This document shows, piece by piece, positions 1,863 to 41,172 of a stretch of DNA of 64,000 nt. The DNA is taken from contig JAMWCW010000001.1 of the NCBI GenBank assembly GCA_023819145.1, positions 154,474 through 218,473 on the forward strand. The letters run 5' to 3'. This DNA is from Candidatus Omnitrophota bacterium (GTDB lineage: Bacteria; Omnitrophota; Gorgyraeia; DTHP01). Under the pieces are notes generated by a model. It did no database searches, was not told where the DNA came from, and saw nothing but the letters and a program-made list of their open reading frames with translations. The translations under genes were made by a program, and so were the position numbers. The stretch's first letter is position 1, and each line of letters starts with the position of its first letter.

Positions 1863-3118
1863 TCAAAAGTAGCTGAGAAGGGGTTGTTTTTTTACCTCTC
1901 GCACTTCTCTAATTCTTCGAGAAAGTAAAAGCACTACCAGCCAACGTAAAGAACTTGAAACTAGGAAAAGGAGAAGAATTTTATAGCCTCTTAAAGGAGG
2001 AAGGTATTTTACTAAGAAACCTCCTAAAAACGCTCCTAGACAGAGAGCTATTCCATTAAAGACATTAAAATAGGCAACGCACCGCGTTCTTTTCTGAGGG
2101 GTTACTGCATCAAGAATAAAATTTGTTGCTGAAAGGTTAAATCCCGACCAGGCAAATCCTGATAGTGCTTGGATAAAAAATAGGTAAAGAGGGTTTTGAT
2201 TAATAATCCAGAGAAAAGGAAGACAGGCAATAAAATGGGAAGTAATCTTTAGAATCCGCACATTCCCTACTTCATCTGCCATCCTCCCCCAACGGTCAAC
2301 CAAAATGATGGAAAACATTGCTACGGTTGTAACCAAAATGGTATAGGTCAAATAATTAAATTTGAGGTCTCTGAGCATAAATACTGAGAAAAAGGGAGCG
2401 GCGATATTCACAGAGAAGTTTAGTCCAGAGACAAAGGTTACAAATTTCAAAAAATTTGACTCCCTGATGCGTCTAATAAAATCTAAGAAACTAAAATATG
2501 ATTCAGGTCTGTTCCTAAAAGGAGGTTCATACATCCGGATTAAGAAAAACCAAGAGAGCATTCTAAAGATAAATGATAGGCTAAAAATAATAACAAAGCC
2601 TTTTAACGGTTTTTGTTTCAAAAAATGCAATATAAATCCGGAAATAAAGGAAGCACTGATTATTATGGTTTGAAAAAGTTTATTTCTTTTACCAAAGAAT
2701 TTACCCCTTTTTTGCCAAGGAATATATTCAGAGATTAAAGAAGTCCAAGGTGGCCCGGCGAAGGCATTTAAGCTGTTGAGTAGAGCTACAAAAAGAATAA
2801 GAAAAAACACGGTATTTTCTTTGAAGATGTAAGGAATAAAGACAAGTGGTATAAACATTAGGGCATGTAAAAGAACAAAGATATTAATAATCTTTTTCCT
2901 GCTTTTCATTTTTTCTGTGAAATCCGCGGATTTAGTTGGACTAAAGAAGATGAAAGATTGGATAAGGCGGAGAGAGTTCCTATTTGTTTTACATTTGCTT
3001 TCAAAGCCAAGGCATAAGGAGTGATATAATCGGTAGTCAATCCAAACATACAAGAGGCAAAAATCCCATCCCACAAAGAATAACCAATGCTTTTTCTAAT
3101 TTTATTTTGCTTATTCAT
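1863..3118 (-). CDS. MFS transporter, reading frame interrupted by a 1-nt slip in a T6/A6 homopolymer (possible pseudogene or sequencing error)
   Basis: The MFS TM1 region (SIGYSLWDGIFASCMFGLTTDYITPYALALKANVKQIGTLSALSNLSS) lies in ORF 2906..3118. The remaining 11 TM-like segments lie in ORF 1863..3074 in another frame. Adding one A to the A6 run (plus-strand T6 at about 2909-2914) fuses them. Confidence 0.6.
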
Positions 3119-3148
3119 ATTTTTATATTATAATAAAAAAATAAAAAG

Positions 3149-4225
3149 ATGAAAACGGGGATAGCACACCTGCCTTTGCATTATGGTAAAGCTCCTTCCT
3201 GGCTCTTTACCCGAATGAAAGTTCTTGCCCGCGAAATTATTTTAATTATAGTTAAGGAATTTGGGCAAGAGGAGATTTTATTTAAACTATCTGACCCTTT
3301 TTGGTTCCAAGCGTTTGGTTGCGTTTTAGGTTTTGACTGGCATTCTTCAGGGTTGACTACCACGGTTTGTGGGGCAATCAAAGAAGGGTTAAGGGATGTT
3401 TCCAAAGAGTTGGGAATTTTTGTCTGCGGAGGCAAAGGTGGGGTTGCGCGTAAGACTCCTCAGGAAATAGAGCAGCTTGCGGAGAAAAGATTCATTGAGG
3501 TTTCACCCGAACGACTTGTCTATGCCAGCAAGATGTCTGCTAAAGTAGATTCTACTGCTTTGCAGGACGGTTATCAAATTTATCATCACAGTTTTATCTT
3601 GACCCGCGACGGCCAATGGTGTGTAATCCAACAGGGAATGAACAAAGATACACGTTGGGCAAGAAGATATCACTGGTTGAGCAAGAATTTGGAGGATTTT
3701 GTTTGCGAACCCCATAAGGCGATTTGCTGTGACCAAAGAGGTAGAGTTCTAAATATGGTGGCAAAAGAGAGTTCATCGGCGAGAGCAATGAGTGTTATTT
3801 TGTCGCGAGAAAAACCCCAAAAAGTTTTGGAAGAATTTAGGAAAGTTAAAGAATTAAAATTATCCTCAAAGCATCCTTTATCTTTCAGGAATATTCGTCC
3901 AGAAAATTTAAGAAAAATTTTACTAAAGACTTATGAAGAAAGACCAGAAAATTTTGAAGAACTTCTCGCCATAGAAGGGGTAGGCCCAAAAACTATTCGT
4001 GCTTTAGCGCTTATTTCTGAGTTAATCTATGGTAAGAAGGTTTCTTTTTATGACCCGGTGAATTTTGCCTTTGCGCATGGTGGAAAAGATGGCTATCCTT
4101 ATCCGGTAAATAGAAGAACATACGATTTATCTATTCAGGTTTTAAAGGATTGTCTTAATCAGGCAAAGATAGGCGAATATGATAAATTGAGAGCATTAAG
4201 GAAGTTATCTCTTTTTGTTGTTTAG
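3149..4225 (+). CDS. DUF763-family protein
   Basis: N-terminus MKTGIAHLPLHYGKAPSWLF plus a C-terminal HhH-like LLAIEGVGPKTIRALALISEL segment. The family is recalled from memory, not searched. Confidence 0.5.
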   Translation: MKTGIAHLPLHYGKAPSWLFTRMKVLAREIILIIVKEFGQEEILFKLSDPFWFQAFGCVLGFDWHSSGLTTTVCGAIKEGLRDVSKELGIFVCGGKGGVARKTPQEIEQLAEKRFIEVSPERLVYASKMSAKVDSTALQDGYQIYHHSFILTRDGQWCVIQQGMNKDTRWARRYHWLSKNLEDFVCEPHKAICCDQRGRVLNMVAKESSSARAMSVILSREKPQKVLEEFRKVKELKLSSKHPLSFRNIRPENLRKILLKTYEERPENFEELLAIEGVGPKTIRALALISELIYGKKVSFYDPVNFAFAHGGKDGYPYPVNRRTYDLSIQVLKDCLNQAKIGEYDKLRALRKLSLFVV

Positions 4226-9319: not shown

Positions 9320-11434
9320 ATGGAGCCGATACGTTTAGAGACAAAGATTAATGGCAATCCGTTAATTATTGAAACCGGGAAACTTGCAAAACAAGCAGAT
9401 GGAGCAGTTACAGTGCAGTACGGCGAGACTGTAGTTTTGGTTACGGCAGTTATGTCGCGAGAGATTAAAGAGGGAGCAGATTTTCTTCCCCTTACCGTAG
9501 AGTATCAGGAAAAAACATACGCTGCGGGAAAAATTCCCGGAGGATTTTTTAAACGCGAAGGCAGACCGTCCGAGAAAGAAATCCTTACTTCCCGCCTTAT
9601 TGACCGTCCTATAAGACCTCTTTTTCCCGATGGCCTACGCAATGAAATACAAATTATGGCGATGGTTCTATCAAGCGACATTAGTAACGACCCGGATATT
9701 TTAGGCATTATTGGTGCCTCTTCTGCTTTACATATCTCTGATATCCCTTTCTTGGGGCCAGCGGGAGCAGTGCGTGTTGGGCGTTTAAATAACGAGTTTA
9801 TTATTAATCCCACGTATAGTGAGTTAGAAAATTCTGATTTAGACCTCGTGGTGGCAGGGACCAAAGAGGGAGTGGTGATGTTAGAAGGCACTGCGCGGGA
9901 ATTGCCAGAAGAATTAGTTCAAGAAGCAATCAATTTTGCTCTCCCAGAGATAATGAAAATAATTGACTTACAAGATAAACTGAGAGATTTATGCGGAAGA
10001 CAAAAGAGAACTTTGGAGCTGGATAAGATTGACTCTTCTTTGCTGGAAATGGTAAGAGAAAATAGTATTGAGAATTTACGCGAGATTAATATGCTTTCTG
10101 ACCGAGAAAAACGTATTGAAGCCATTGATTCGCTGGTTAAAGAGATAACTGTTACGCTTTCTAAAATAAACCCCGAATACGATGAAATAAAGGTTAGAAG
10201 CGCGTTGGATAAGATAGAAAAAGAAGAAGTTCGCAAAATTATTATTAAAACCAAAAAACGGATTGATGGGAGAGAGTTAACCGATATACGTCCTGTAAAA
10301 TGTGAAGTAGGGGTTCTTCCGCGTACCCATGGTTCCAGCCTTTTTACGCGTGGACAGACTCAAAGTTTAGCAGTTACTACTTTGGGTACAAGCACGGATG
10401 AACAGATGATTGATGCTTTAGAAGGAGAGACCTTTAAGAAATTTATGCTTCATTATAATTTCCCTCCTTTTAGTGTAGGAGAGGTAAGACCAGTAAGGGG
10501 CCCGGGAAGAAGAGAAATTGGACACGGTGCCTTGGCGGAGAGGGCGCTTCTTCCGGTTATGCCCAAAGAGGAGGAATTTCCTTATACTGTACGGGTGGTT
10601 TCGGATATTTTGGAGTCAAATGGTTCTTCAAGTATGGCTACTGTTTGTGGAGCAAGTCTTTCTCTAATGGATGCGGGTGTTCCCATAAAGAAAGCAGTAA
10701 GTGGAATTGCGATGGGTTTAGTAAAGGAAGCTACCGAGGAGATTGTGCTTACCGATATTGCGGGGCTTGAAGACCACTATGGGGATATGGATTTTAAAAT
10801 AGCAGGCACAGAAGACGGAATAACCGCCATTCAGATGGACTTAAAGATAAATGGTATTGGCGTGGGGTTGATTAGTAAGATATTGTTCCAGGCAAAGCCT
10901 GCCCGAATTTTTGTCTTGGGGAAGATGAAAGAGGTGATAGGTAAGCCACGGGAGAAGATATCCAGTTATGCTCCTAAGATTACTACTTTAAAGTTCCCTC
11001 CTGATAAAATTGCGCTTATCATTGGTCCGGGTGGAAGAAATATAAGAAAGATTATAGATGAAACAGGGGTGAGCATTGACATAGATGATTACGGCGTGGT
11101 TTCAGTTTCAAGTATTGACGAGAATAATCTTAACCGGGCAATTGAAATGATTAATTTTCTTACTCAGGAATTAAAGGTGGGAGAAATTTATAAAGGTAAG
11201 ATTACTCGTGTAACAAATTTTGGGGCTTTCTGCGAACTTGCTCCCGGTAAAGAAGGATTAATTCATATTTCAGAATTGTCCAATAAGTTTGTAAAAGATG
11301 TAACCGACATCGTAAAGGCAGGAGAAGATGTAAGAGTAAAGGTTATTGGGATAGACGAACAGGGCAGAATAAGTCTGAGTATTAAGCAGGCAAGTCCTTT
11401 GGATAAAAAAGAAAGCCCTAAAGAAAAAAGCTGA
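9320..11434 (+). CDS. pnp: Polynucleotide phosphorylase
   Basis: Two RNase PH domains, a KH domain and a C-terminal S1 domain. Classic rpsO-pnp synteny. Confidence 0.95.
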   Translation: MEPIRLETKINGNPLIIETGKLAKQADGAVTVQYGETVVLVTAVMSREIKEGADFLPLTVEYQEKTYAAGKIPGGFFKREGRPSEKEILTSRLIDRPIRPLFPDGLRNEIQIMAMVLSSDISNDPDILGIIGASSALHISDIPFLGPAGAVRVGRLNNEFIINPTYSELENSDLDLVVAGTKEGVVMLEGTARELPEELVQEAINFALPEIMKIIDLQDKLRDLCGRQKRTLELDKIDSSLLEMVRENSIENLREINMLSDREKRIEAIDSLVKEITVTLSKINPEYDEIKVRSALDKIEKEEVRKIIIKTKKRIDGRELTDIRPVKCEVGVLPRTHGSSLFTRGQTQSLAVTTLGTSTDEQMIDALEGETFKKFMLHYNFPPFSVGEVRPVRGPGRREIGHGALAERALLPVMPKEEEFPYTVRVVSDILESNGSSSMATVCGASLSLMDAGVPIKKAVSGIAMGLVKEATEEIVLTDIAGLEDHYGDMDFKIAGTEDGITAIQMDLKINGIGVGLISKILFQAKPARIFVLGKMKEVIGKPREKISSYAPKITTLKFPPDKIALIIGPGGRNIRKIIDETGVSIDIDDYGVVSVSSIDENNLNRAIEMINFLTQELKVGEIYKGKITRVTNFGAFCELAPGKEGLIHISELSNKFVKDVTDIVKAGEDVRVKVIGIDEQGRISLSIKQASPLDKKESPKEKS

Positions 11435-36993: not shown

Positions 36994-38712
36994 ATGCATT
37001 ATCTAAGTGAACATAATATCTTCGTATTTTTAGTCCAAATTGTTATTCTCCTTGGTCTTGCCAGAGGATTGGGTGAATTATTTCGCAGGTGGAAGCAACC
37101 GCCTTTAACCGCAGAACTTTTAGTAGGAGTTTTTTTAGGGCCTACGATTCTGGGTAGATTGGCTCCTACTTGGCATCAAATTATTTTTCCTCAGGATGTT
37201 ACACAACATAATATGTTTGAAACCGTAGCTTGGCTTGGAGTCCTATTCCTGCTTTTAGAAGCGGGGCTTGAAATCGATTTTACCTCTGCTTGGAGACAGC
37301 GAGGAGATGCTTTGAAGATAGCAATATCCGATATTATCATACCGATGGTTATTGCATTTATACCCTGTTTTTTCCTCCTTGATTCATATTTGGTAAATCC
37401 AGAGCAAAGGTTTATTTTCGCTATGTTTATGGCAACAGTGATGACCATCAGTGCTTTACCGATTGCGGTAAGAGCATTACATGATTTGAAGCTTTCAAAA
37501 ACCGATCTGGGGTTTTTGATAATGTCGGCATTATCGGTAAATGACTTTATCGGATGGTTGTTCTTTACCTTAGTGCTCGGAGTATTTACGCAGGCTAATT
37601 TGGATATTATAAAGGTCTTAGCAATTGCTGGCACAACGATTATCTTTACAGTCATTTGCCTTTCTATTGGGAGAAAAACCGTTGATAAAATAATCACAGG
37701 TATAAAGTCTGCTCAGATGCCTCAACCGGGAATACCCTTGACTTTCATCTGTTTGCTCGGTGCCTTTTGTGGAGCCATAACTCAGAAGATTGGCATTCAC
37801 GCATTGTTTGGATTTTTTATTGCAGGAATTATGGCCGGCGGTTCACGCGCGCTATCGGAAAACGTCCGGCAAGTTATCTCTCAAATGGTCTATGCCATAT
37901 TCGTTCCGTTATTTTTCGTAAATATTGGTTTAAAAGTCGATTTTCTAAAAAGTTTTGATATTTTTCTTGTTCTGTTTATTAGCATTATTGGTATTGGCGG
38001 AAGATTTCTGGGGGCATGGATTGGGGTTAATTTTACAAAACTACCCAAGACGAATAGACTTGCTATAGCGATTGCCCATACACCCGGCGGAGCGATGGAA
38101 ATCGTTGTGGCTTTGCTTGCTTTAGAATACAACCTTATCAGCCAGCCGGTATTTGTAGCTATTGTTTTTGGTGCAGTAATATCTTCTGTTATCCTCGGGC
38201 CTTGGTTTAGCTACGCGATAAAGAAGCGGAAAGAAATAAGCATTCTTGAATATTTTTCTGCAAGAGGCATAATTGGGTCTATTAAACAAGATGACAAAAG
38301 TAAAGCAATTAAGGATTTATGTAGGCTTGCCGATAGTCAGGATGATATGCCCGATTCAGAAACTATTTATGAAGCAGTAATGAAGCGTGAGAATGAAATG
38401 GGTACGGGGATGGAGGAGGGTTTGGCTGTTCCTCACGCGCGACTCTCGGCAATTAAACGACCATTGGTCTACTTTGGACGTTCGGTTGATGGTATTGAAT
38501 GGGATACCCCGGACGGCAAGCTTGTCCGTTTTATTTTTTTAATATTGACTCCCAGTGATGACGATGATTCTCAGGTACAGATATTAGGTGCTATCGCAAG
38601 AACAATAAGTGATGAACAGATAAGGGATTCTATTTTAAAGGCGATAGACGAACATGAAATTTGGTTAATCTTACAGAAGGTTTTTTCCACCCAGCACATT
38701 AGAAAAGAGTAA
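36994..38712 (+). CDS. CPA2-family cation:proton antiporter fused to a C-terminal PTS EIIA-type-2 (PtsN-like) domain
   Basis: About 12 TM Na+/H+ exchanger core, then a soluble domain with MGTGMEEGLAVPHARL (phosphorylatable His) typical of EIIA-Ntr/Fru. Confidence 0.75.
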   Translation: MHYLSEHNIFVFLVQIVILLGLARGLGELFRRWKQPPLTAELLVGVFLGPTILGRLAPTWHQIIFPQDVTQHNMFETVAWLGVLFLLLEAGLEIDFTSAWRQRGDALKIAISDIIIPMVIAFIPCFFLLDSYLVNPEQRFIFAMFMATVMTISALPIAVRALHDLKLSKTDLGFLIMSALSVNDFIGWLFFTLVLGVFTQANLDIIKVLAIAGTTIIFTVICLSIGRKTVDKIITGIKSAQMPQPGIPLTFICLLGAFCGAITQKIGIHALFGFFIAGIMAGGSRALSENVRQVISQMVYAIFVPLFFVNIGLKVDFLKSFDIFLVLFISIIGIGGRFLGAWIGVNFTKLPKTNRLAIAIAHTPGGAMEIVVALLALEYNLISQPVFVAIVFGAVISSVILGPWFSYAIKKRKEISILEYFSARGIIGSIKQDDKSKAIKDLCRLADSQDDMPDSETIYEAVMKRENEMGTGMEEGLAVPHARLSAIKRPLVYFGRSVDGIEWDTPDGKLVRFIFLILTPSDDDDSQVQILGAIARTISDEQIRDSILKAIDEHEIWLILQKVFSTQHIRKE

Positions 38713-38730
38713 TGTCAGAAATTAAAACAA

Positions 38731-38793
38731 AAAAAGTCTATTTACCTGCACTTTCGGCTGACTGAACGTTACAGTGGTTCGGGATGGTGCTTG
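38731..38793 (+). repeat. Degenerate duplicate of the 5' end of the miaB-like gene (compare 40038-40105)
   Basis: The exact 13-mer GCACTTTCGGCTG occurs at 38748-38760 and at 40055-40067. The flanks are about 70-75% identical by eye over roughly 60 nt. Confidence 0.45.
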
Positions 38794-38925
38794 AAACATT
38801 ACGCAAGATAAGTGCCTTAGAATAAAAGGATTACGAAACACTGTTATTAATAAGTGATTTTTTTTGAAATATGGCATAATGTTGTATAAAGTTGACATCT
38901 GTTTGGTAGGTATCAACTTTTAGTC

Positions 38926-39025
38926 TGTTACCCAACAGGATATGTAATATTAATATTTGTTAGGTAATTATTTCCTTGACATTTGTTACCCAACAAGTTA
39001 TATTGTTATGTAGTTTGTTGGGTAA
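38926..39025 (+). promoter_or_regulatory. Promoter TTGACA(38976)-17-TATATT(38999) embedded in two inverted-repeat operator pairs (TGTTACCCAACA ... TGTTRGGTAA)
   Basis: The direct half-sites TGTTACCCAACA are at 38926-38937 and 38984-38995. The inverted half-sites are TGTTAGGTAA at 38959-38968 and TGTTGGGTAA at 39016-39025. The second pair straddles the -35/-10 spacer and the predicted transcription start. Confidence 0.55.
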
Positions 39026-39036
39026 TGGGAGGGTTT

Positions 39037-39357
39037 ATGCGAGGTATAATAAAAGGGGTCTTAGCAGAAGAACTTGAAAATTCGCTTCGGATGAGAAAGG
39101 AGTATGAAGAGGTATTGGGTAGATTACCTAAAGGATGTCTTGCGATAAGAAAGATAAGAGGTCACGAGTATTATTATCTGGTAAAGAGAATAGGTAAGAA
39201 GGTAAAGTATATCTACAAGGGAAAAATATCCGAAGAAGAGAAAAAGAAGTATGACGAAGCCAAAGAGTTGCGGGCAAAATACAAGAAATTATTGTCCCAA
39301 GTCAAAAAGCAAATAAGATTCTTAAGGAGTTCATTGCGTGGAAAAGAAGCAATTTGA
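39037..39357 (+). CDS. Small basic protein (106 aa), candidate DNA-binding antitoxin or regulator of the downstream nucleotidyltransferase
   Basis: ATG follows GGGAGGG. Promoter TTGACA-17-TATATT upstream with operator repeats. Lys-rich coiled-coil tail. A beta-hairpin segment GHEYYYLVKRIGKKVKYIYKG. Confidence 0.5.
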   Translation: MRGIIKGVLAEELENSLRMRKEYEEVLGRLPKGCLAIRKIRGHEYYYLVKRIGKKVKYIYKGKISEEEKKKYDEAKELRAKYKKLLSQVKKQIRFLRSSLRGKEAI

Positions 39358-40027
39358 TTTATGTCTTGAAATTTTAAGAAGATTTCATAAAGAGGGTATC
39401 TTAGACGACTTAATTCTTATAGGTAGTTGGTGTATATATTTTTATAAAGAATATTTTAGTAATGTGCCTTACATAGAACAAGCCGCCATACGAACCAGAG
39501 ACATCGATTTTTTAATCGCTAAGCCAGCAAAAATAAAACATACCGTAAATATTCCCGAGCTTCTAAAGGATTTAGGTTTTGTAACGATTCTAAAAGGGCG
39601 CGAGGGTTATGTCAAACTTGACCATCCTGACTTAATGCTTGAGTTCTTGGTTCCGGAAAGGGGGAAAGGCACGGACAAGCCGGTTCCGCTAACAAAGTTG
39701 GGTATAAATGCAGTGGCGCTAAGATTTTTGAACCTACTCACTGATAATATAATTAAAATAAAAGTTGAAGATTTTACTATCTCAATGCCACATCCCGCCA
39801 ATTTCGCTCTTCATAAATTAATAATCTTCCAGCGCAGACTCAGGGAAGAAAAAGCGATAAAAGATAGAAACGCTGCCATTGATATTTTAAAGGCCTTGAT
39901 ACGTAAAGGAGATATAGCAATTATTCAACGGATTTTTAATTCCATGATTCCGAAATGGCAAAAGAAGATTATAAAGGGGTTGCAAGAAGTTAAAGAAAAA
40001 GAAATATTAGAAATATTGACCGATTAA
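39338..40027 (+). CDS. Nucleotidyltransferase-fold protein (GS...DxD; AbiEii/MenT/DUF1814-like candidate toxin)
   Basis: LILIGSWCIY (GS motif) and IRTRDIDFLIA (DxD) lie about 25 residues apart. Overlaps the upstream gene by 20 nt. Stop and miaB start form TAATG. Confidence 0.55.
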   Translation: MEKKQFDLCLEILRRFHKEGILDDLILIGSWCIYFYKEYFSNVPYIEQAAIRTRDIDFLIAKPAKIKHTVNIPELLKDLGFVTILKGREGYVKLDHPDLMLEFLVPERGKGTDKPVPLTKLGINAVALRFLNLLTDNIIKIKVEDFTISMPHPANFALHKLIIFQRRLREEKAIKDRNAAIDILKALIRKGDIAIIQRIFNSMIPKWQKKIIKGLQEVKEKEILEILTD

Positions 40028-41172
40028 TGGTTAAAAATGAAAAAGTTTTTGTCCGCACTTTCGGCTGTCAGATGAATGTGCGCGATTCTGAGGTGATTGC
40101 CGGTTTACTAACCGCTAACAACTATACGCTCACCACTAACCCCCAGCAAGCCGATATTATCATATTTAACACCTGTTCTGTGCGTCAACATGCGGAAGAC
40201 AAAGTATGGTCAGAAATAGGGAAGTTTAAAAAAAAGCGAAATTCCCCGATGATTGGTCTTGTCGGTTGTATGGCACAGGTATATAAAGAGAAAATTTTTG
40301 AGCGTGTTCCGCAGGTAGATTTTGTAGTGGGTCCATCTGATATCCACAAAATTCCCGAAATAATCAGTAAACTATCCGCTATGCGCTGGCCGCTATACGC
40401 TACTAAAATCTGGGAGACCGGTGGAAACATTCGTCCTGAGGAAATATACCACAGCGGATTTTATGAGGATAAAGAGCATACTTATGTGATTATCTCCGAA
40501 GGTTGTTCCCATTATTGTTCCTATTGTATTGTGCCCTATGTTCGAGGCCCTCTAAGAAATCGGAACTATGCAGATATCATCAAGGAAATAGAAAAAGCAA
40601 TAGATAAAGGTATAACAAAGGTTACTCTTTTAGGTCAGAATGTAAACGCCTATCAATATAATGGCGTTAATTTCGTTAAATTCGTTAATATGGTTAATGC
40701 TGTTAAAGGATTGAAAGAATTCAGCTTTGTTACCTCACACCCTAAAGACACAACTTTAGAACTATTTAAGGCAATGCAAGATTTAGAAAAGTTAAAGAAG
40801 TACCTACACCTACCAGTGCAGTCGGGTTCGGATAGAATCCTAAAATTAATGAATAGAGGTTATACCCGAAAATTATATTTGGATTTAGTAGATAATTATC
40901 GTAAAATTGTTAAAAATGGCATATTAACCACCGATATTATTGTGGGTTTTCCCACAGAGAGTAAAGAGGATTTTCAGGAAACTTACAATTTAGTTAAAGA
41001 GATAGAATTTAATGCAGGTTTTATTTTTAAATATTCTCCTCGCCCCTATACCGAGGCAGAAAAATTGCCTGACGATGTTTCTAAAGAGGAGAAAGTGAGA
41101 AGACATAGATTGGTATTGGAATTGCAGAAGAGAATATCCCTAAATAAAAATGATAAAGCAGAGGCAAAGTAG
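40027..41172 (+). CDS. MiaB-like tRNA methylthiotransferase lacking the C-terminal TRAM domain
   Basis: MTTase N-domain (VRTFGCQMNVRDSE), radical SAM CSHYCSYC and a complete AdoMet core. The protein ends right after the core at 381 aa, with no TRAM. Confidence 0.75.
   Translation: MVKNEKVFVRTFGCQMNVRDSEVIAGLLTANNYTLTTNPQQADIIIFNTCSVRQHAEDKVWSEIGKFKKKRNSPMIGLVGCMAQVYKEKIFERVPQVDFVVGPSDIHKIPEIISKLSAMRWPLYATKIWETGGNIRPEEIYHSGFYEDKEHTYVIISEGCSHYCSYCIVPYVRGPLRNRNYADIIKEIEKAIDKGITKVTLLGQNVNAYQYNGVNFVKFVNMVNAVKGLKEFSFVTSHPKDTTLELFKAMQDLEKLKKYLHLPVQSGSDRILKLMNRGYTRKLYLDLVDNYRKIVKNGILTTDIIVGFPTESKEDFQETYNLVKEIEFNAGFIFKYSPRPYTEAEKLPDDVSKEEKVRRHRLVLELQKRISLNKNDKAEAK

Follow-up and report, generated by a model that had tools for sequence, protein, structure and literature searches.

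A candidate AbiE/MenAT-like cassette built around an NTP_transf_8 nucleotidyltransferase in an Omnitrophota genome

Directly upstream of miaB in a 64-kb stretch of DNA from a Candidatus Omnitrophota bacterium (contig JAMWCW010000001.1, positions 154,474 to 218,473; the whole stretch is called the window here), a gene for a small, basic protein (gene 1) is followed by an overlapping gene for a predicted nucleotidyltransferase (gene 2), and the question that this locus raises is whether the pair is a toxin-antitoxin module, an appendage of the tRNA modification genes next to it, or something else. An earlier note on this DNA had described a self-contained two-gene module with its own operator-wrapped promoter, and this description is borne out: gene 1 lies directly 5′ of gene 2 in all 78 loci with upstream DNA, mostly with the same 20-nucleotide (nt) overlap and in varied genomic contexts. 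Our best explanation is that positions 38926 to 40024 (∼1.1 kb) form a compact, horizontally mobile, self-regulated two-gene operon which, by analogy, would be an AbiE/MenAT-like toxin-antitoxin or abortive-infection module with a nucleotidyltransferase of a different family and a structurally unrelated partner. We give this explanation as a whole, including the toxin-antitoxin-like function, a probability of about one-half.

A cassette with its own promoter and operator

A scan of GTDB species genomes gave 520 confirmed matches, the best 80 of which (86% to 37% identity) were kept. These best 80 of 520 come from Omnitrophota, Elusimicrobia, Planctomycetota, Chlamydiota, Nitrospirae, Acidobacteriota, Verrucomicrobiota, Kiritimatiellaeota, Saganbacteria, Desulfomonilia, and others, and cover more than 10 phyla. 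No relatives turned up in phage genomes, searched with tblastn, or in IMG/VR. The neighbors of the cassette differ in every locus examined (L001 to L004; L numbers denote our comparison loci), and the DNA similarity between copies from different genomes starts sharply at the first operator half-site (38924 to 38928) and ends near the gene 2 stop codon (40005 to 40024).

The promoter is of the sigma-70 type, with TTGACA (38976 to 38981) and TATATT (38999 to 39004) on the plus strand separated by 17 nt. It matches 11 of 12 consensus positions, shares the top rank among the 13 promoter-like sites found when 3 kb were scanned, and is identical in five loci with differing genomic contexts. Both this promoter and the two inverted-repeat pairs ∼58 nt apart that the earlier note reported are present, with a pair-to-pair distance of 58 nt; the arm-to-arm spacer is 20 nt, not the 21 nt given there. 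The second pair had been placed over the promoter spacer and the transcription start. The first arm of that pair, half-site 3, does lie in the spacer between −35 and −10, whereas half-site 4 lies just 3′ of the −10 element, in the early leader (Table 1).

The paired pattern TTACCNNACA-N16-24-TGTNNGGTAA occurs at two places in the 64 kb, both of them in the operator, where none was expected and none of 100 shuffles reached that number. Four half-sites in the same layout were found in 62 of 76 loci (score of ≥38, against a shuffled maximum of 35), at about −113 and −54 on the plus strand and about −82 and −23 on the minus strand relative to the gene 1 ATG, and the operator is the most conserved noncoding feature of the cassette. 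The half-site GTTACC(CA/TA/AA/AT)ACA exists in CA, TA, AA, and AT variants, and all four positions switch together between clades, the pattern that would be expected of a protein-binding operator coevolving with its reader. These comparisons suggest that the operator is under strong selection, which is consistent with autorepression. Two diverged copies of the cassette in a single metagenome-assembled genome (JAUYCX01, isolate C20_maxbin.112_sub; L098 and L112, with gene 2 proteins 70% and 65% identical to that of the window) carry different operator half-sites (TTACCCAACA versus TTAACCAACA/TTACCTAACA) and look as if they were insulated against cross-talk.

Copies of TTACCCAACA with one mismatch also occur elsewhere in the window. 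There are 17 in total (dinucleotide-shuffle mean, 4.1; maximum, 11), 13 of which are scattered outside the operator (e.g., at 526, 9058, 25077, 30162, and 57003), none of them paired; this surplus may be an effect of composition or may represent stray binding sites. Just 5′ of the operator, an inverted repeat with 13-nt arms (AAAGTTGACATCT / AGGTATCAACTTT, 38888 to 38920) that could form a hairpin contains a second TTGACA; it is kept in L002 and not in more distant copies. An Rfam scan of the cassette region found no RNA family.

The nucleotidyltransferase and its small basic partner

The gene 2 protein matches the Pfam family NTP_transf_8 (PF12281) at residues 11 to 187 (score, 80.9 bits; family cut-off, 26.3; E value, 1.7e-22). 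PF12281 is present in all 120 gene 2 homologues listed, several of which are named "GSU2403 family nucleotidyltransferase fold protein" by NCBI. The AlphaFold model is confident (predicted local distance difference test score [pLDDT], 82.9; predicted template modeling score, 0.83), and all 11 Foldseek matches in the PDB at an E value of ≤0.001 are nucleotidyltransferases, headed by MenT1 in the MenAT1 complex (8an5_B; E value, 3.6e-5; TM-scores, 0.39 to 0.47), with a CCA-adding enzyme and TM1012 ranking lower. The GS and DxD motifs pointed out in the earlier note, like the 20-nt overlap with gene 1, are present, and the motifs LIG29S30WC and T53-R54-D55-I-D57-F are invariant in 48 homologues. 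From Omnitrophota to Alphaproteobacteria, the invariant residues are G29, T53, D55, D57, E102, H159-K160, R167, and K175-D176-R177; G29-S30 and R54 are also conserved in the family, as is the K160-x6-R167 spacing. By its motifs and its predicted structure, the gene 2 protein is a Pol-β-fold nucleotidyltransferase with an intact active-site signature, made up of LIG29S30, the metal-binding D55-I-D57, and E102 as the third carboxylate.

The earlier note had gone further and assigned gene 2 to the AbiEii/MenT toxins; the fold has held up, and the family has not. A hidden Markov model (HMM) search of the kind proposed there hit NTP_transf_8, as described above, and gave no match to PF08843 (AbiEii/DUF1814) at an E value of ≤1, while a genuine AbiEii from L012 scored 146 bits in the same library. 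PDB sequences searched with single proteins (phmmer) and with the family profile yielded nothing, no MenT or AbiEii included, and hhalign aligned the gene 2 profile with one AbiEii in the motif I/II region only (E value, 0.015), placing RTRDIDFL opposite TTLDIDFL.

The active-site motifs nevertheless allow a comparison across the families. Motifs I and II of DUF1814 proteins read hG[GS]-x15-DhD, with an arginine in motif II (PMC3985639). The corresponding residues of gene 2 are present (G29-S30, R52/R54, D55, and D57), but the GS and DxD motifs are 24 residues apart instead of the typical 15, contrary to the spacing claimed previously. Motif III (KLxAaxxR) is matched, in a correspondence made by pattern, by K160-L-I-I-F164-Q-R-R167, with the aromatic residue at +4 and the arginine at +7, and K160 and R167 are invariant even when the fused forms described below are included. 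Of the DUF1814-specific motif IV (+DxxD), half is present, as K175-D176-R-N-A/T, in which the basic-Asp pair is invariant and no second Asp follows at +3. In MenT1, the Thr of T39-R40-D41 is the site of antitoxin-induced autophosphorylation (PMC11375011), and the triad T53-R54-D55 of gene 2 is identical. Judged from these motifs, gene 2 plausibly works like a MenT/AbiEii enzyme but belongs to a sister family.

The gene 1 protein has, as stated before, 106 amino acids and is very basic. A 124-amino-acid version starting at a TTG codon (38983) was rejected, since the homologues have uniformly 106 amino acids and a Shine-Dalgarno sequence precedes the ATG at 39037. These homologues are 80 to 93% identical and fall into more than 120 clusters; a profile search with gene 1 reached 443 representative clusters, mostly of free-standing proteins of 100 to 110 amino acids. 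In the AlphaFold2 model (pLDDT, 89.1), a helix (residues 2 to 29) is followed by a three-stranded β-meander (34 to 62) and a second helix (66 to 105), and the predicted protein is thus a coiled-coil hairpin with a β-meander at its tip. It carries no catalytic signature and is a partner without a solved structural relative. Searches of Pfam, NCBIfam, and PADLOC gave no match to COG5340 (AbiEi), COG4861, or the MazE-like MenA partners. Against PF20586 (DUF6788), the window protein had no match at an E value of ≤10, while about half of its close homologues have a weak precomputed match and one relative reaches 16.5 bits against a cut-off of 27.2.

What gene 1 is becomes clearer from Alphaproteobacteria, where fused GSU2403-family proteins of ∼339 amino acids (242 alphaproteobacterial plasmid records) carry PF12281 at residues 104 to 311 and are ∼27% identical to gene 2 of the window. 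An HMM of the gene 1 family, made from the window protein and 91 diverse relatives, matches the N-terminal residues 30 to 95 of these proteins in register (E values, 1.5e-8 to 5.8e-7). On these alignments, gene 1 and gene 2 are the split form of a single-chain family, and the fusion of the gene 1 domain to the nucleotidyltransferase is strong evidence that both products act together. The idea that so small a gene 1 would be a new antitoxin type is not supported: MenA1 already has only 68 amino acids (PMC7450476), and gene 1, being homologous to the N-terminal domain of the GSU2403 proteins, is a detached domain and not a free-standing new antitoxin. The fused genes, too, have two tandem palindromes directly upstream (spacers, ∼4 to 18 nt), one of which, TACCCCACAAAA/TTTTGCGGGGTA, resembles the Omnitrophota half-site. 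We infer that the gene 1 protein is the reader of the operator, because it is basic and because its domain and the nucleotidyltransferase are the only domains common to split and fused loci. Gene 1-type domains are also found N-terminal to an MNT-type NTP_transf_2 nucleotidyltransferase (209 amino acids; protein P0341) and fused to AraC-family regulators that also contain a periplasmic-binding-protein-like domain (372 and 530 amino acids; P0314 and P0371).

The existence of single-chain homologues, together with the conserved overlap and the fact that gene 2 is shifted by +1 with respect to the reading frame of gene 1, would fit programmed +1 frameshifting within the 20 nt, which would recreate the alphaproteobacterial form as one protein. 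We regard this as very improbable. Of 79 loci, 69 retain the GTG with which gene 2 begins, and 59 have a Shine-Dalgarno-like sequence (in the window, AAGGAG 8 nt upstream of the GTG), and this conserved start and internal Shine-Dalgarno sequence argue for coupled initiation, not frameshifting; no recognizable +1 slippery motif precedes the TGA, and two proteins are annotated in all databases.

The 5′ end of miaB as an insertion site

The adjacency to tRNA modification genes (miaB-like and miaA) that the earlier note emphasized is real, and a housekeeping pair tied functionally to miaB/miaA could be read from the physical neighborhood in the window, in L101, and, with a larger gap, in L041. We compared 80 metagenomic loci whose MiaB is 54 to 75% identical to that of the window, 48 of them with at least 1.4 kb of upstream sequence. 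The cassette is present at 1 of these 48 loci and missing from the other 47, whereas the downstream synteny miaB-TPR/SPOR-miaA-hflX is kept almost everywhere. The cassette is thus accessory at miaB, not part of a conserved gene order, and its adjacency to the tRNA modification genes is not functional. Given also the unrelated contexts elsewhere and the duplicated stubs that mark the miaB 5′ end as a hotspot of insertion, the housekeeping explanation is effectively refuted.

The signs of insertion are as follows. Upstream of the cassette, a decayed copy of the miaB 5′ end, frameshifted and reading MSEIKTKKVYL..TFG*LNV..VRD, aligns with miaB at a score of 52 (shuffles: mean, 24.4; standard deviation, 4.5; maximum, 49), and the intact miaB 5′ end on the other side was probably supplied by the insert. 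The homology of L002/L088 to the window begins at 38729. A stub of the form KKV[FY]I[RK]TFG, followed by W or a stop codon, precedes the intact miaB in ∼10 other loci (among them L012, L016, L017, L025, L041, L042, L058, L063, and L066), and the insertion junction lies a few bases after TTCGGCTG. The inserts are 0.2 to 3 kb long, and their contents differ between loci (Table 1). Together, the stubs make up a family of conserved repeats. Their right arms, of three subtypes or more, reach ∼70 nt beyond the miaB-like core, and in several genomes, the complete one of Velamenicoccus archaeovorus among them, the stubs stand as direct repeats on both sides of the cassette, up to three per locus; the loci concerned, besides the window, are L001/L142, L002/L088, L089, L092, L105, and L153. 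This repeat pattern suggests integron-like arrays of recombinase-less cassettes, and the locus looks as if small integrative cassettes, most of them lacking a recombinase, had accumulated at an att site in the miaB 5′ end.

Table 1 Features of the cassette and its surroundings, and contents of comparable inserts at other miaB loci (positions in the window)
Feature	Position	Strand	Remarks
Decayed miaB 5′ copy (attL-like stub)	38712-38790	+	ATG overlaps stop codon of upstream Kef-type transporter gene (TAATG)
"Type a" element-end sequence	38766-38925	+	Right of miaB-like core; also flanks cassette in L002/L088, L089, L092
Distal operator pair	38928-38967		TTACCCAACA-N20-TGTTAGGTAA
Half-site 1	38928-38937	+	TTACCCAACA
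Half-site 2	38958-38967	-	TTACCCAACA, one mismatch
Proximal operator pair	38986-39025		TTACCCAACA-N20-TGTTGGGTAA; spans promoter spacer, -10, first leader bases
Half-site 3	38986-38995	+	TTACCCAACA; in -35/-10 spacer
Half-site 4	39016-39025	-	TTACCCAACA; just 3′ of -10, early leader
Gene 1 Shine-Dalgarno sequence	39027-39033	+	GGGAGGG
Gene 1	39037-39357	+	106 amino acids; isoelectric point 10.06; 31 Lys + Arg
Internal Shine-Dalgarno sequence and gene 2 GTG	39324-39340	+	Within gene 1 end; AAGGAG at 39324-39329
Gene 2	39338-40027	+	229 amino acids; GTG start; overlaps gene 1 by 20 nt
Intact miaB 5′ end (attR-like)	40027-40080	+
Insert, window and L041			Nucleotidyltransferase cassette
Insert, L012			AbiEi/AbiEii, between stub and miaB
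Insert, L058			HTH-MNT/HEPN and large serine recombinase
Insert, L063			Fic; two stubs
Insert, L042			AAA_14/DUF4143 ATPase
Inserts, L016 and L017			Glycosyltransferase-like open reading frames, not confirmed by family scan

A recombinase inside the insert was found in L058 only. There, a large serine recombinase of 562 amino acids (Resolvase, Recombinase, and Zn_ribbon_recom domains; L058 positions 2349 to 4037) is encoded directly 5′ of miaB, and the stub, at ∼824, is inverted. Its position makes this recombinase a candidate integrase for the hotspot. In the window, whose 1.3-kb insert has no recombinase, a tblastn search of the 64 kb with the L058 protein found nothing at an E value of ≤0.01, and the window holds no second copy of the cassette.

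Tandem accretion at rlmH by large serine recombinases is known from elements of the staphylococcal cassette chromosome (SCC) type. Islands specific for dusA integrate into the 5′ end of a tRNA modification gene and replace it (PMC4482086). As in these systems, the insert at miaB leaves the old 5′ stub upstream and provides a new 5′ end, tandem arrays with repeated stubs occur, and one insert (L058) has a large serine recombinase. The miaB inserts differ in being very small (0.2 to 3 kb) and mostly, as in the window, without a recombinase; their target is miaB.

In the window, the gene 2 stop codon overlaps the miaB start codon (TAATG, 40025 to 40029), with no terminator-like site between them. 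Transcription of miaB, and possibly of TPR-miaA-hflX further downstream, may therefore now depend on the autoregulated promoter of the cassette.

What the cassette might do

In the mechanism that we propose, the gene 1 protein, which probably oligomerizes through its coiled coil, would bind the four GTTACCnnACA half-sites and occlude the −35/−10 spacer and the transcription start, resulting in negative autoregulation; it would also bind the nucleotidyltransferase and hold it in check. The free nucleotidyltransferase would transfer a nucleoside monophosphate to a target in the cell; by analogy with MenT and AbiEii, the most plausible target is the 3′ end of an RNA such as tRNA. T53, two residues before the first catalytic Asp, may be a site of self-inactivation comparable to T39 of MenT1. 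The toxin-antitoxin or abortive-infection function is favored because of the company that the cassette keeps at the hotspot, its solitary mobility, and its weak, coupled GTG start. Among the traits typical of toxin-antitoxin systems, a small bicistronic operon, apparent translational coupling, and variable genomic locations are found.

Two known systems come closest. In AbiEi/AbiEii (type IV toxin-antitoxin/abortive infection; COG5340 and DUF1814/PF08843), a regulator gene is likewise followed by a gene for a Pol-β nucleotidyltransferase, inverted repeats over the promoter are used for autorepression (as predicted for the cassette), and the system is mobile and occupies the same miaB hotspot in L012. 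The enzymes share a T-x-D-x-D-F motif II, a KLxxaxxR-type motif III, and a basic-Asp motif. They differ in family (PF12281, not PF08843), in the GS-DxD spacing (24, not 15), and in the incomplete +DxxD motif (KDRNA) of the cassette enzyme. The partner is a 106-amino-acid coiled-coil/β-meander protein, whereas AbiEi has a winged helix-turn-helix (HTH) and a C-terminal domain, and the cassette has four half-sites of 10 to 11 bp with 20-bp spacers and a 58-bp period, in contrast to the two 23-bp repeats of AbiE. MenA1/MenT1 of Mycobacterium tuberculosis (Rv0078B/Rv0078A) resembles the cassette in combining a small upstream partner with a minimal nucleotidyltransferase; MenT1 is the best structural match, has the identical T-R-D triad at the first catalytic Asp, and has a similar distance between the Lys of motif III and the Asp (15 versus 16). 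However, MenT1 has no sequence-level relationship to gene 2, and its TM-scores are low (0.39 to 0.47). MenA1 (68 amino acids) is MazE related, is predicted to be disordered, and lacks a DNA-binding domain, and MenAT1 has no transcriptional autoregulation (PMC7450476, PMC11375011). The combination of a regulator with a nucleotidyltransferase is of a type already known from AbiE and MenAT; what differs here is the nucleotidyltransferase family and the fold of the partner. The single-chain GSU2403 proteins of Alphaproteobacteria (PF12281) share the invariant residues, have an N-terminal region of ∼100 amino acids homologous to gene 1, and lie downstream of two tandem palindromes, but they are single polypeptides of ∼339 amino acids instead of the products of two overlapping genes, with other half-site sequences and shorter palindrome spacers.

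Several observations weigh against a toxin-antitoxin function. The fused single-chain genes sit alone among metabolic genes on alphaproteobacterial replicons, and such solitary forms do not fit a classical addiction module with a labile antitoxin. For a toxin-antitoxin pair, the degree of conservation of the two proteins is unusual. Gene 2 matches ANT(2'')-Ia (TM-scores, 0.48/0.57) and LnuA (0.44/0.61) as well as or better than it matches MenT1. Scans of PADLOC, NCBIfam, and PHROGs with both proteins found nothing relevant, and neither did a search of the literature on NTP_transf_8/PF12281, GSU2403, and DUF6788/PF20586, including toxicity and neutralization. The covariation (mutual information) between half-site class and protein columns is confounded by phylogeny and does not tell gene 1 from gene 2 as the DNA reader, and the AraC-type fusion partners of the gene 1 domain already have an HTH of their own.

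The first four of these points, namely, the fused genes among metabolic genes on plasmids, the high conservation, the TM-scores equal to or above those of MenT1, and the defense and toxin-antitoxin libraries without a match, would equally suit a nontoxic, self-regulated enzyme that acts on a small molecule (e.g., an antibiotic, like ANT(2'')/Lnu) or makes a benign modification of RNA or protein, with the gene 1 protein or N-terminal domain as repressor, sensor, or oligomerization subunit. The fold alone cannot assign the substrate, since LnuA, ANT(2'')-Ia, and MenT1 are all neighbors of gene 2. The motifs T-R-D-x-D-F, KLxxaxxR, and K-D, however, are closer to the DUF1814 toxins than to the aminoglycoside and lincosamide nucleotidyltransferases; the cassette travels alone, into a hotspot common to toxin-antitoxin modules; and the predicted tight four-site autorepression, the weak GTG start, and the translational coupling are typical of toxin control. 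We consider a nontoxic enzyme a serious but rather unlikely alternative.

In HEPN-MNT systems, the nucleotidyltransferase is the antitoxin. By the same reversed, switch-like logic, the enzyme of the cassette could nucleotidylylate the gene 1 protein or itself and so tune DNA binding, with the gene 1 protein as the effector or as a transcription factor for other genes. The MNT-type fusion in P0341 and the excess of one-mismatch half-sites (13 outside the operator, with ∼4 expected in total) lend themselves to such a scheme, but neither a HEPN domain nor an effector domain of another kind is present, gene 1 lacks a catalytic signature, and the paired operator occurs only at the cassette within the 64 kb. 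HEPN and NTP_transf_2 matched neither protein in a scan that did detect the genuine HTH-MNT/HEPN pair of L058. All in all, this scheme appears improbable.

We propose, tentatively, that PF12281 enzymes and their coiled-coil/β-meander partners make up an unrecognized, very widespread toxin-antitoxin/defense family of nucleotidyltransferases (more than 500 matches among GTDB species genomes, in more than 10 phyla), in which the partner would be both the four-half-site repressor and the regulatory subunit of the enzyme and which, in Omnitrophota, would move as a cassette without a recombinase, in arrays that resemble integrons and grow at an att site within the first codons of miaB. For the large, annotated family PF12281, the locus offers a testable model, with a partner, an operator, and candidate residues for catalysis and regulation. 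If gene 2 is toxic, the AbiE/MenAT theme of a regulator and a tRNA-type nucleotidyltransferase would extend to a second nucleotidyltransferase family, and a partner of different fold that exists in split and fused forms bears on how such enzymes are restrained. The concerted half-site changes provide a natural series for studying the specificity of DNA recognition, and the cassette arrays at the miaB 5′ end may point to a new way in which Omnitrophota, a group with few cultured representatives, acquire genes.

Both types of nucleotidyltransferase module can coexist in one genome neighborhood: the L003 contig has, ∼4.4 kb downstream of its cassette, a PF08843 AbiEii gene (10111 to 10693).

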